Under the pieces are notes generated by a model. It was not told the DNA's origin and did no database searches. It saw only the letters and a program-made list of their open reading frames with translations. Shown here piece by piece: positions 38,574 to 41,165 of a stretch of DNA of 64,000 nt. Position numbers and translations under genes: made by a program. This DNA is from Phenylobacterium sp. (GTDB taxonomy: Bacteria > Pseudomonadota > Alphaproteobacteria > Caulobacterales > Caulobacteraceae), in assembly GCF_020402745.1 (NCBI RefSeq), contig NZ_JADBYZ010000024.1, one strand, 5' to 3'. Positions within the stretch are counted from its first letter, which is position 1. Every line of letters begins with the position of its first letter.

Positions 38574-39392
38574 GTGCGGATGGCCAGTTACCTAGAGACG
38601 GTCCGGGAGTGGTTCCGCGCGCGGCTGGATGCGCCGGGCGGCCTCTCCACGCCGGAGGGTGCGACCCTGGGCCTTCGGGTCCTGGCCATCTGGCGCTCCC
38701 GGATGATCGCCCAGGCCCTTCGCAACCTGGAGGACGGCCGGGTGCTGGGCGGTCCGTTCGCGGGCATGGCCTATGTGGAGTCCGCCACTGAGGGCGCCCT
38801 GGCCCCCCGCCTGGTCGGGACCTACGAGGACGAGCTTCATCCTCACCTGGCCACAGCTCTGGCGGCGGACCCGGAGGTCATTCTCGATATCGGCTGCGCT
38901 GAGGGATACTACGCCGTGGGGTTGGCCCGGTTGGCTCCCCGTGCGGTGATCCACGCCCACGATACCTCCGAGACCGCGCAGGCGGCATGCCGGCGGATGG
39001 CGGAGCTGAATGGGGTGGAGGCCCGCGTCCGAACCGGGGGCCTCTTTCACCCGGAGGACTTCCAGGCTTTCGCCGATCGCCGCTGCCTGGTCATCGTCGA
39101 CATCGAGGGCGCCGAGGAGGACCTGCTGAGACCAGACCTCGCCCCGGCCCTGGCCGGCATGCGGCTGATCGTCGAGACGCACGATGTCTATCGCCCGGGG
39201 GTGCTGGACCGGGTCCGAGCGCGCTTCGAGGCCACCCACGAGATTACGGTGGTGCATCCCGGTCCCAAGACCGCGCCCCTGCCGGAGATCCTGCGCAACC
39301 GCAGCCACCTGGACCAGCTGCTCGCGGTCTGGGAGTTCCGCGCCGCCCCGACGCCCTGGCTGGTGATGACGCCGAAGCGCTCATTCCGATAG
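38574..39392 (+). CDS. Putative class I SAM-dependent methyltransferase whose 3' end is rebuilt by the islet junction
   Basis: 272 aa. It has a motif I-like ILDIGCAEGYYAVGLA and an acidic post-I HAHDTSE. The last 3 codons (FR*) lie beyond the left direct repeat, in islet-side sequence. Confidence 0.55.
   Translation: MRMASYLETVREWFRARLDAPGGLSTPEGATLGLRVLAIWRSRMIAQALRNLEDGRVLGGPFAGMAYVESATEGALAPRLVGTYEDELHPHLATALAADPEVILDIGCAEGYYAVGLARLAPRAVIHAHDTSETAQAACRRMAELNGVEARVRTGGLFHPEDFQAFADRRCLVIVDIEGAEEDLLRPDLAPALAGMRLIVETHDVYRPGVLDRVRARFEATHEITVVHPGPKTAPLPEILRNRSHLDQLLAVWEFRAAPTPWLVMTPKRSFR
39327..39383 (+). repeat. Left 57-bp direct repeat (3' end of the methyltransferase ORF)
   Basis: GTCTGGGAGTTCCGCGCCGCCCCGACGCCCTGGCTGGTGATGACGCCGAAGCGCTCA matches 40231-40287 at 55 of 57 positions. 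Confidence 0.9.
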
Positions 39393-40230
39393 GAAAGAAA
39401 ATGAACAAGGAAACATACTACAATATTATTAAAACGCTGTTCTGTTTATTGTTCCCGATAATCATGGGATCTATGGCATTTGTGATCGGAATTGATGGAG
39501 GAGTGAGCAAGTTTATTCGTGAATATCAAACATTGATATCATCATTTGTTGGAGTAATTGTTTCTATTGTTGGGGTTATAGTTATTGTGCATCAGATCAA
39601 TGAAAATTCACGTATTGAGATGAATATCCGAAAAAGAAAGGTAAATAGTGCTGTCGCTGGAATTACAAATGAAATTTCAGAGATATTAAAATGGACAAAT
39701 CAAATAAACAACAACTACAAGGCATTAATAACTGCAAATGAATGTAACGATAATCTAGTTGTCGATAGAGGATTTCACTCCATGGATAATTGTCAAATAG
39801 ATACAGAAAAATTTACATCAATGAGATTGATAATGGAGAATACAGATGACAATGAAATATCTGCGAGAATTGCAAACTTGTTTCATAATATACAAATAAA
39901 CAATTCAAGATATCAATCTGTAAGGAATCACAAGAAATATAATGTTAACACAAACACAATTCTATCAAAATTCTATATAACGTCTAACATGTCGTTGAAT
40001 ATACGAATACACGCAATTGCTTCCGACCTTATGTCGGAAACAAGATTTTCTCTAGGTGATAACGATATAATGAAACCGAGTGAAGAGAATATAAATAACA
40101 GTTTAAGTATCATGGGTGTATATGAAGACGATTTTCCGGAGATTCACAAGCAGTTGCGCAAGATCTGATTATGTAGACATGAACTCCAGGTCAACTTGTT
40201 GTTATCATTGTTATTCTCAATCGACGCCGC
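39384..40230. mobile_element. Low-G+C single-gene islet (putative integrated cassette); no recombinase present
   Basis: There is an abrupt composition shift. Hand counts of 60-nt lines give 20/60 and 16/60 G+C inside, against 46/60 in the flanking line 39301-39360. The islet is bounded by the 57-bp direct repeats and contains one ORF. Confidence 0.7.
39401..40168 (+). CDS. Orphan membrane protein (255 aa, two predicted N-terminal TM helices, Asn/Ile/Lys-rich)
   Basis: The ATG is preceded by GGAAAG. The uninterrupted 768-nt frame in AT-rich DNA is itself improbable by chance. Hydrophobic stretches are IKTLFCLLFPIIMGSMAFVIGI and LISSFVGVIVSIVGVIVIV. I recognise no family motif. Confidence 0.65.
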   Translation: MNKETYYNIIKTLFCLLFPIIMGSMAFVIGIDGGVSKFIREYQTLISSFVGVIVSIVGVIVIVHQINENSRIEMNIRKRKVNSAVAGITNEISEILKWTNQINNNYKALITANECNDNLVVDRGFHSMDNCQIDTEKFTSMRLIMENTDDNEISARIANLFHNIQINNSRYQSVRNHKKYNVNTNTILSKFYITSNMSLNIRIHAIASDLMSETRFSLGDNDIMKPSEENINNSLSIMGVYEDDFPEIHKQLRKI

Positions 40231-40287
40231 GTCTGGGAGTTCCGCGCTGCGCCGACGCCCTGGCTGGTGATGACGCCGAAGCGCTCA
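40231..40287 (+). repeat. Right 57-bp direct repeat (displaced copy of the methyltransferase 3' end)
   Basis: It has 55/57 identity to 39327-39383. Both differences (40248, 40251) fall on third codon positions (GCC>GCT, GCC>GCG, both Ala). It is followed by GTC TAG and GC-rich host-like sequence. Confidence 0.9.
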
Positions 40288-40391
40288 GTCTAGGCGGGCG
40301 ACCTCGCCCGCGAGGCGGCCGGCCAGGTCGCCCCGGGGCTCCACCGCCTCCAGGCCCCGCCGGCGGGCCTCCCGGGCCGAAAGGTCGGCCT

Positions 40392-41165
40392 TCACCGGGC
40401 CAATCGGCCGTCCGACAGGGCGCCCAGTTCGAAGGTGAAGAGGACGGCGGGATCGGGAGCCTCGACCTCCCCGGCGATCGCCTCCGGCGCCAGGGTGCGG
40501 ACGAGGTGGCGCAGGATGGCCAGGCGCGCCGGCTTCTTCTGGTCTGAGCGAACGCAGGTCCAGGGCGAATTCTCCGAATGGGTGCGCCTCAGCATGCTGT
40601 CCCGGGCCTCGGAGTAGTTGTCGAAGCGGGATTGCGCAGCCTCGTCCAGGGGGCTGGACTTCAGGACCTTGAGGGGGTCGGTGCGGCGTTCCTCAAGGCG
40701 CTTCTTCTGTTCCTTCCGGCTGACGTCCAGCCACAGCTTGACGAGCCTCACGCCGCTGTCGACCAGCATGCCCTCGAAGGCTGGAACCTCGCGGAGGAAG
40801 TGCTCGTGCTCGTCCTCCGTGCAGAAGCCCATGACCGGCTCGACCCCGCCCCGGTTGTACCAGGACCGGTTGAAGATCACGGTCTCGCCGGCGGCCGGAA
40901 GCCACTGGACATAGCGCTGGAAGAACCACTGGCTGCGCTCCCGGTCGGAGGGCTTGGGCGGGGCGATGACCCGGGTCGCCCGGGTGGACAGGTGCTCGGT
41001 GATCCTGTGGATTGAGCCGTCCTTGCCGGCCGCGTCGCGACCCTCGAAGATGATCAGGACCTTGTCGCCCTCGGCGATGGCGTGCTGCTGGTAGCGGACC
41101 AGGGCCAGTTGCAGGCGCTGGAGATCCGCCTCGTAGGCGTCGTTTGAAGAAGTCTTGTCGCTCAT
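40392..41165 (-). CDS. ppk2: Polyphosphate kinase 2 family protein
   Basis: 257 aa. It has the PPK2 P-loop FEGRDAAGKDG and the lid region NRSWYNR. Confidence 0.9.
   Translation of the reverse strand: MSDKTSSNDAYEADLQRLQLALVRYQQHAIAEGDKVLIIFEGRDAAGKDGSIHRITEHLSTRATRVIAPPKPSDRERSQWFFQRYVQWLPAAGETVIFNRSWYNRGGVEPVMGFCTEDEHEHFLREVPAFEGMLVDSGVRLVKLWLDVSRKEQKKRLEERRTDPLKVLKSSPLDEAAQSRFDNYSEARDSMLRRTHSENSPWTCVRSDQKKPARLAILRHLVRTLAPEAIAGEVEAPDPAVLFTFELGALSDGRLAR

Follow-up and report, generated by a model that had tools for sequence, protein, structure and literature searches.

We examined a low-G+C islet carrying a single open reading frame (ORF) at the 3' end of a methyltransferase gene in Phenylobacterium sp. 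(contig NZ_JADBYZ010000024.1, assembly GCF_020402745.1); throughout, the window refers to the whole 64-kb stretch of this contig that was analyzed. The genes neighbouring the islet in the window encode an ABC transporter, the methyltransferase, PPK2, RsmE, glutamate-cysteine ligase, a PTR2 transporter and TldD. The G+C content of the window was 62-76% throughout, with the islet as its sole low-G+C spot. Analysis of the islet between its flanking repeats revealed a G+C content of 0.27-0.34 with sharp edges, compared with 0.69-0.78 immediately outside and approximately 0.69 for the genome, in agreement with the collapse in composition reported in a preliminary description of this DNA. The coordinates of all features are given in Table 1.

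The two direct repeats that flank the islet are equal at 55 of 57 positions (57/60 when extended) and run GTCTGGGAGTTCCG...CTGGCTGGTGATG. No third match was detected in the window at up to three mismatches, and shuffled sequences gave an expectation of 0. Both mismatches between the copies (GCC/GCT and GCC/GCG) fall on the third position of Ala codons and are synonymous, as had been noted previously. The preliminary description also equated the repeat with the last 19 codons of the methyltransferase gene. The assignment to the 3' end of the gene was correct; however, the left repeat represents codons 252-270 of a 272-codon ORF, and the final two codons (F and R) together with the stop codon are derived from the islet, creating the ending ...KRSFR. 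The right repeat continues into the native ending ...KRSV, with its TAG stop at 40291-40293, and from there into GC-rich DNA. Both endings had been read in this way before.

Table 1. Features of the islet and its immediate surroundings (positions in the window).
Feature	Position	Strand	Basis or remark
Methyltransferase gene, class I, S-adenosylmethionine-dependent; host core gene	38574..39392	+	Pfam Methyltransf_25/MTS
Left direct repeat (copy A), 19 codons VWEFRAAPTPWLVMTPKRS, in the methyltransferase frame	39327..39383	+	Repeat search
Low-G+C islet, 847 bp (904 bp including one repeat)	39384..40230	+	Composition; no counterpart at 80 related loci
Shine-Dalgarno-like AGGAAAG, overlapping the host stop TAG (39390-39392)	39391..39397	+	Putative ribosome-binding role
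Islet ORF, 255 aa	39401..40168	+	Sole long ORF confined to the islet
AT-rich spacer, 62 nt, from ORF stop to right repeat	40169..40230	+	Partly conserved among alleles
Right direct repeat (copy B, 40231-40287) and native tail GTC TAG; original methyltransferase 3' end	40231..40293	+	
AlkZ-like gene remnant, adjoining the islet and not part of it	40291..40391	-	Present in L002, L091 and L081

The closest loci in GTDB genomes belonged to freshwater Phenylobacterium metagenome-assembled genomes (MAGs). Orthologs of the methyltransferase in Phenylobacterium MAGs shared 84-93% amino acid identity and retained the order ABC transporter, methyltransferase, (AlkZ-like gene), PPK2 and RsmE. We compared the window with 80 orthologous or paralogous methyltransferase loci from other species, and a low-G+C segment was present at none of them (0/80). 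The preliminary description had proposed that the islet is an insertion and had predicted the sequence of the corresponding empty site, which was found verbatim at locus L002. Here the methyltransferase gene end reads ...AAGCGCTCAGTCTAGGCGGGCGACCTCGCCC, encoding ...KRSV and a stop that is followed by GGCGGGCGACCTCGCCC; the empty junction sequence is ...AAGCGCTCAGTCTAGGCGGGC. Copy B of the window was the same as the native gene end of L002 at both polymorphic positions, the downstream DNA included. The related proposal that the element brought its own look-alike of the target was not borne out, as both repeat copies in the window look like locally circulating alleles.

The islet layout was also identified in at least 10 independent metagenome contigs. 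The occupied contigs were L091, from the Joint Genome Institute (JGI), and L081-L090; they stem from independent JGI and Logan assemblies, and the islet-carrying samples were JGI 3300028430, 3300008105 and 3300005044 together with SRR24908194/5, SRR5227751, SRR31514667 and SRR7182477. Contig L091 was 98.8% identical to the window over 39178-40369, a segment that covers both junctions and both repeats. Because this independent assembly reproduces both junctions, a chimeric assembly can be ruled out; the same features were recovered in other independent contigs, answering the concern about mis-assembly raised in the preliminary description.

Only three close clusters of the islet ORF were detected among 5.8 billion proteins, with 100, 66 and 56% amino acid identity, and two further partial alleles bring the number of diverged alleles to at least five. 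The three full-length alleles occupy the same site, have a G+C content of ~30% and are each flanked by a duplicated methyltransferase 3' end. The two partial alleles also lie at this site and have a similar G+C content (~30%). Further copies of the islet, which the preliminary description had suggested looking for, thus exist in metagenomes at the same position, and what could have been taken for a recent or one-off insertion is an old multi-allelic polymorphism. The occupied contigs were alike in their organization, with a methyltransferase end, a GATAGGA...ATG start region, a 255-codon ORF, an AT-rich spacer and a second methyltransferase 3' end leading to the native stop. The extent of the repeat was 50 nt in L081, L083 and L084 and at least 36 nt in L089. 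The islet of the window could be aligned end to end, including its non-coding ends, with the islets of L081 and L089, and this argues that they share one founding insertion. Judged from their sequences, the three full-length alleles have a single origin, given their common site and the near-equal extent of their repeats. JGI sample 3300028430 contained an allele of the 56% type (L084) together with one of the window type (L091), and two Phenylobacterium populations with different alleles therefore coexist in this sample.

These data bear on the idea that the islet is simply an old resident gene with incidental repeats, or else a low-G+C contaminant mis-joined to the chromosome, which we regard as scarcely credible. 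The alleles are indeed old, as seen from the saturation of their synonymous sites, and the order of their similarity roughly follows the host lineages, as a resident gene would have it. However, the exact junctions were reproduced in independent JGI and Logan assemblies, empty sites dominate, also within one species, and a G+C content at third codon positions (GC3) of 0.3 versus 0.9 is not native composition.

We lean towards the interpretation that the islet is a non-autonomous, single-gene accessory mini genomic island of freshwater Phenylobacterium. It would have originated when DNA with one AT-rich gene inserted once at the extreme 3' end of the conserved methyltransferase gene, and this founding insertion would have left ~57 bp of gene end on either side. 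Such a layout could be the product of a Campbell-type single crossover with a circular molecule bearing a copy of the target, catalyzed by a site-specific recombinase or by RecA. A recombinase inside the islet can be ruled out because there is no coding space for it, and domain and structure searches with the islet protein revealed no nuclease, recombinase or transposase signature or fold; in this respect the preliminary description was right. The repeats resemble the attL and attR sites of a decayed integrative element, known as a cis-mobilizable element (CIME), or the footprint of a single crossover.

Several other classes of mobile DNA were considered and rejected. A duplication of 57 bp far exceeds any transposase target-site duplication. 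An insertion sequence, miniature inverted-repeat transposable element or transposon was discarded on the basis that no terminal inverted repeats were present at the islet ends, that the duplication is 57 bp and not 2-15 bp, and that the sole ORF has no transposase domain. An origin from a phage or plasmid was likewise dismissed, with no match for the repeat core or the ORF in IMG/VR and no tblastn match for the ORF in phage or plasmid collections; a remote homolog, P0016, was the only family member that matched plasmids (two). A tRNA scan of the window detected none, so there is no tRNA target. An Rfam scan of 39000-40600 identified no RNA element, and the AT-rich spacer had no Rfam match and an unremarkable predicted fold. 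Finally, the repeat folded no better than shuffled sequences (z = +1.3 to +1.5), excluding an attC-like hairpin site. The islet is like an integron cassette in being a small promoterless single-ORF unit that would be read from an upstream promoter and varies between strains; it differs in having no attC (neither a hairpin nor inverted core sites), no IntI and no attI, and in that its repeats are host coding sequence.

A possible, if unlikely, alternative is that a tyrosine or serine recombinase encoded elsewhere recognizes the repeats as genuine attL and attR sites; it could reside, for example, on an integrative and conjugative element, an integrative and mobilizable element or a prophage that targets this methyltransferase 3' end. 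In that case the islet would be a fully decayed element or minimal cargo that is still excised and integrated in trans. CIMEs keep attL and attR with the target-gene 3' end and have lost their integration and transfer genes, and integrative elements and CIMEs are defined by direct repeats that hold and rebuild the 3' end of a target gene (PMC5704250). The islet shares with them the absence of integration and transfer genes, an intact target gene and flanking repeats that contain the gene end. Repeats of 50-57 bp are also typical of att identity blocks, and the repeat boundaries were nearly equal in three diverged alleles. In contrast to CIMEs, the islet is only 0.85 kb, has one gene and shows no trace of other modules in any of its alleles, and no cognate element was found for it: an integrase-bearing element was detected at this site in 0/80 related loci, and the repeat core had no match among IMG/VR viral contigs. 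The rebuilt gene end is also unfaithful, with a C-terminal tail that differs from the native one in every allele. Together with C-terminal duplications described in fungal mitochondrial DNA (see below), CIMEs come close enough to the islet that the earlier statement that no described element class fits was too strong.

The methyltransferase/AlkZ junction has received other DNA. Locus L039 (1142-3973, Phenylobacterium sp. LC074) contains a GC-rich pair of TetR-like and cytochrome P450-like genes of ~2.4 kb at the same junction. This insertion has no repeats, a point that weighs against reading the islet repeats as att sites, and the spot appears to be tolerant of insertions.

Evidence on how the islet spreads was obtained from three contigs with ~99% identical flanks, which on this basis belong to one species. 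L081 and L083 are occupied (56% allele) and L008 is empty. The left flank of L081 was 99% identical to that of L008, with nearly no mismatches up to copy A. To the right of the islet, mismatches were clustered in a tract of ~150 nt that directly adjoins it and spans the native methyltransferase tail and the 3' end of the convergent AlkZ-like gene. Within this tract, L081 was 90-96% identical to L010 and L011, compared with 38-80% identity to L008, L009 and L012, which agreed with each other. Past the tract, L081 and L008 agreed completely (100%) for ~550 aligned nt, after which their identity was 99.2% across a further 4.7 kb. This pattern has the signature of a linear donor, comprising the islet and its right flank, that recombined into an L008-like chromosome by homologous recombination, with the left crossover falling within the repeat region. 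Nucleotide conservation in the methyltransferase gene peaks at the repeat plus ~30 nt upstream (0.93-0.95 compared with 0.74-0.93 elsewhere in 13 lineages), which makes the repeat region a natural crossover zone. This stretch corresponds to 39297-39370 of the window and to columns 721-790 of the methyltransferase alignment; conservation within the 3' region is lowest in the tail beyond it.

In the interpretation as a mini genomic island, the islet would have no mobility function of its own and would be moved by homologous recombination via the flanking core DNA, with one such case reconstructed here and the conserved repeat region serving as the left crossover zone. The transfer carried ~150 nt from outside the repeat, unlike site-specific recombination, and for this event it weighs against both recombination in trans at att sites and the site-specific integration put forward in the preliminary description. 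Presence/absence polymorphism among close relatives together with an imported flanking tract, as found for L081 and L008, characterizes genomic islets that are exchanged by homologous recombination. Flexible islets exchanged in this way between conserved flanking core genes similarly vary in presence within a species, have diverged low-G+C alleles at one locus and show recombination tracts that extend into the flank; they normally have no duplicated gene end, in contrast to the islet described here, in which every allele keeps the duplication and a distant homolog shows it again at another gene. Loss of the islet could proceed by recombination between the two repeats, which would remove it precisely and restore the native gene end. 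Such precise loss, itself unseen, would explain the exact empty sites.

The coexistence of occupied and empty alleles with a co-conversion-like flank (L081 versus L008) would also be seen if the islet ORF or a partner cut empty alleles near the methyltransferase 3' end and repair copied the islet in together with its flanks. We consider this kind of homing very improbable. In fungal mitochondrial DNA (atp6, cob), a gene is followed by one or more inserted ORFs and a duplicated C-terminal fragment, an arrangement attributed to homing-endonuclease genes (PMC6279837). The islet has the same order of gene, ORF and duplicated end, and the foreign tract of ~150 nt next to the insert in L081 resembles a co-conversion tract. 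Recombination of imported linear DNA would be equally expected to leave such a tract, however, and ordinary recombination predicts the mixture of alleles just as well. Moreover, the islet ORF lies on a bacterial chromosome without an in-frame fusion to its host gene, and it encodes a helical bundle with two transmembrane helices in which no LAGLIDADG, GIY-YIG, HNH or PD-(D/E)xK signature or fold was found. Pfam and NCBIfam gave no match to a His-Cys nuclease either, and none of the structural neighbours of the model resembled a nuclease.

A second case with a similar layout was identified at a different gene. P0010, a homolog with 22% identity to the islet protein, is encoded by a single low-G+C gene (0.42) in L097 (6528-7670, Logan SRR25993477 contig), which belongs to an unrelated genome of >70% G+C. 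The gene follows an AraC-family gene whose last 20 codons recur downstream with the stops aligned, the two ends reading AARGDRRILLERLAASAAR and AARGDRKIFQEKLAAIAAA, each before its stop. At the nucleotide level this repeat was weak (38/53 positions, 72%) and was equalled by 1/100 shuffles. At the protein level it scored 28.1 bits compared with at most 24.3 bits for shuffled sequences, above 400/400 shuffles. With 72% identity, the L097 repeats suit a foreign-ortholog 3' end carried on an integrative element better than an exchange by RecA. The duplication was seen at only 2 of ~10 family loci examined; the others lay in multi-gene islands or beside a tRNA gene.

This recurrence bears on a further explanation, in which a ~0.9-kb unit of one repeat plus the gene, without a recombinase, cycles between a circle and the chromosome by recombination between the repeats and uses a short copy of a conserved gene end as its integration address. 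The two-transmembrane family would be its characteristic cargo or helper and for this reason would sit at the ends of housekeeping genes. We judge such a homology-addressed cassette to be quite improbable. Two members with 22% identity to each other have the same layout at different targets (the methyltransferase gene and the AraC-family gene of L097), two more lie against or across the stops of ruvA and serA, the minimal unit is unchanged among alleles with saturated synonymous sites, and the persistently low G+C content suggests a life partly outside the mutational regime of the host. Set against this are the few loci with a duplication and the weakness of the L097 repeat in nucleotide comparisons. 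In addition, neither a circular form nor a tandem copy was observed, the membrane protein has no DNA-handling fold, and bacterial genes commonly lie close behind a co-oriented upstream neighbour in any case.

Several of our data are difficult to reconcile with a mini genomic island that is maintained and exchanged by homologous recombination. The founding event is unseen, with neither a larger integrase-bearing element nor a circular form at the site, and the only other insertion there in the 80 relatives is the repeat-less pair of genes in L039. Synonymous divergence (dS) between the alleles was 1.8-2.0 (saturated), compared with 0.43-0.80 for neighbouring host genes in the same genome pair. 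The GC3 of the alleles remained at 0.28-0.33, compared with 0.86-0.91 for the genome, indicating no amelioration; during a long residence with vertical inheritance or homologous recombination the G+C content should have risen, unless AT-richness is selected. When the changes were polarized, an excess of weak-to-strong substitutions was observed on the branch of the window only (45 versus 23 overall and 24 versus 6 at third positions), and the L081 and L089 branches appeared close to a low-G+C equilibrium. The differences between copy B and copy A in three lineages were confined to third codon positions (6/6), with no indels and with the native stop kept. For a supposedly functionless copy to be so clean points to recent refreshment or a recent insertion. 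Finally, the layout at the AraC-family gene hints at something that chance and homologous recombination do not readily explain.

We also analyzed the islet ORF. Its ATG lies 8 nt past the rebuilt host stop and is preceded by AGGAAAG; in the other two full-length alleles the ORF overlaps the methyltransferase gene by 8 nt, and the motif GATAGGA.A.AA.ATG is kept in 3/3 full-length alleles. No sigma-70-like promoter was found upstream of the ORF, consistent with the preliminary description, in which the gene was placed 8 nt behind the stop without a promoter of its own. The most likely mode of expression of the ORF is read-through from the methyltransferase gene with translational coupling, which fits the close linkage of its ATG to the host stop. 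Pairwise ratios of non-synonymous to synonymous substitution rates (dN/dS) among the alleles were 0.11-0.18, which argues that the protein is functional and under purifying selection. The gene kept by selection in the proposed island encodes a membrane-anchored helical-bundle protein. Hydropathy peaks at residues ~8-35 and ~42-68 of the 255-aa protein identified two N-terminal transmembrane segments, and an AlphaFold2 model based on 27 homologs (mean predicted local distance difference test score, pLDDT, of 84) was helical almost throughout, with a helical bundle after these segments.

Searches with the islet protein gave nothing significant in Pfam, NCBIfam, PADLOC, PHROGs, PDB sequence profiles or Foldseek against PDB and BFVD. 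The best matches for function or fold were two uncharacterised Myoviridae proteins (E = 0.02-0.04). A profile search among 1.84 billion representative proteins identified 57 remote homologs (clusters) of 157-361 aa, most of 210-295 aa, that have the motifs WQTLI.G, AAR..LP.ALS, IQ.Q..R, LF.YAR and FPE in common. On this comparison of sequences, the protein is a member of a rare family without a name. A protein-pattern scan of metagenome contigs with the three-allele alignment confirmed no relative; a DNA-pattern scan with TTTATTCGNGAATATCAAAC gave 21 matches that were attributed to chance, all on low-G+C contigs without tblastn similarity.

The G+C content of the family gene was below that of its surroundings in nearly all cases examined. 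Some neighbourhoods of the homologs were accessory or conflict-like, with HEPN_AbiU2 and DUF2513, a PIN-TPR-GreABC gene, a KAP NTPase or, on a Sinorhizobium plasmid, toxin-antitoxin pairs and an integrase; elsewhere the family gene adjoined tRNA-Phe or directly followed a housekeeping gene. The window ORF matched no PADLOC defence model (2TM/SLATT-type), and its remote homologs gave only sub-threshold matches to defence models, driven by their transmembrane segments. The neighbourhoods of distant homologs are weakly suggestive of an accessory role in conflict or defence. DUF2513 genes overlap or neighbour the family gene at two unrelated loci (L100/L101 5837-6241 and L098 3453-3860), which hints that the two form a two-gene module in some members. 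In L107 (4390-7406, Novosphingobium sp. AAP83, LJHY01000010.1) the family member overlaps the ruvA stop (GTGA), and it shares the space between ruvA and ruvB with an antitoxin/ParE pair. In L108 (3409-6239) it starts 12 nt past the serA stop, between serA and purA, and has a G+C content below that of its flanks. No duplicated ruvA end (L107) or serA end (L108) was detected at either the nucleotide or the protein level.

If the conservative interpretation holds, the islet would be a minimal, non-autonomous integrated unit whose biology is that of ordinary islands on an unusually small scale, and a clean natural example of how small a persisting integrated island can get: one promoterless gene between att-like repeats that is selected for, lost precisely and passed among species-level lineages by homologous recombination. 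Island-finding tools that need an integrase or a minimum size would miss such units, and a rare family of two-transmembrane proteins would join the candidate conflict or accessory genes. If instead the islet is a homology-addressed cassette, this would explain the recurrence at the AraC-family gene of L097, the abutment to ruvA and serA and the AT-rich alleles despite saturated divergence. The missing G+C amelioration and the recurrence of the layout would together make a targeted, recombinase-free insertion route directly testable.

Beyond the islet, the AlkZ-like gene (PF06224), which relatives carry on the minus strand, flanked by the methyltransferase and PPK2 genes (L002 6890-7982, L091 1199-1684 and L081 3497-4576), has been lost from the window by a deletion of ~1.09 kb with its junction near 40361, and ~100 nt of it remain. 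This deletion is recent, because L091 has the same islet allele and retains the gene. The AlkZ-like gene also contains an 86-nt indel between L081 (3736) and L083 (3765-3851), with 359 and 405 aa as called, respectively; the two contigs are otherwise ~99.9% identical and carry the same islet allele despite this difference.

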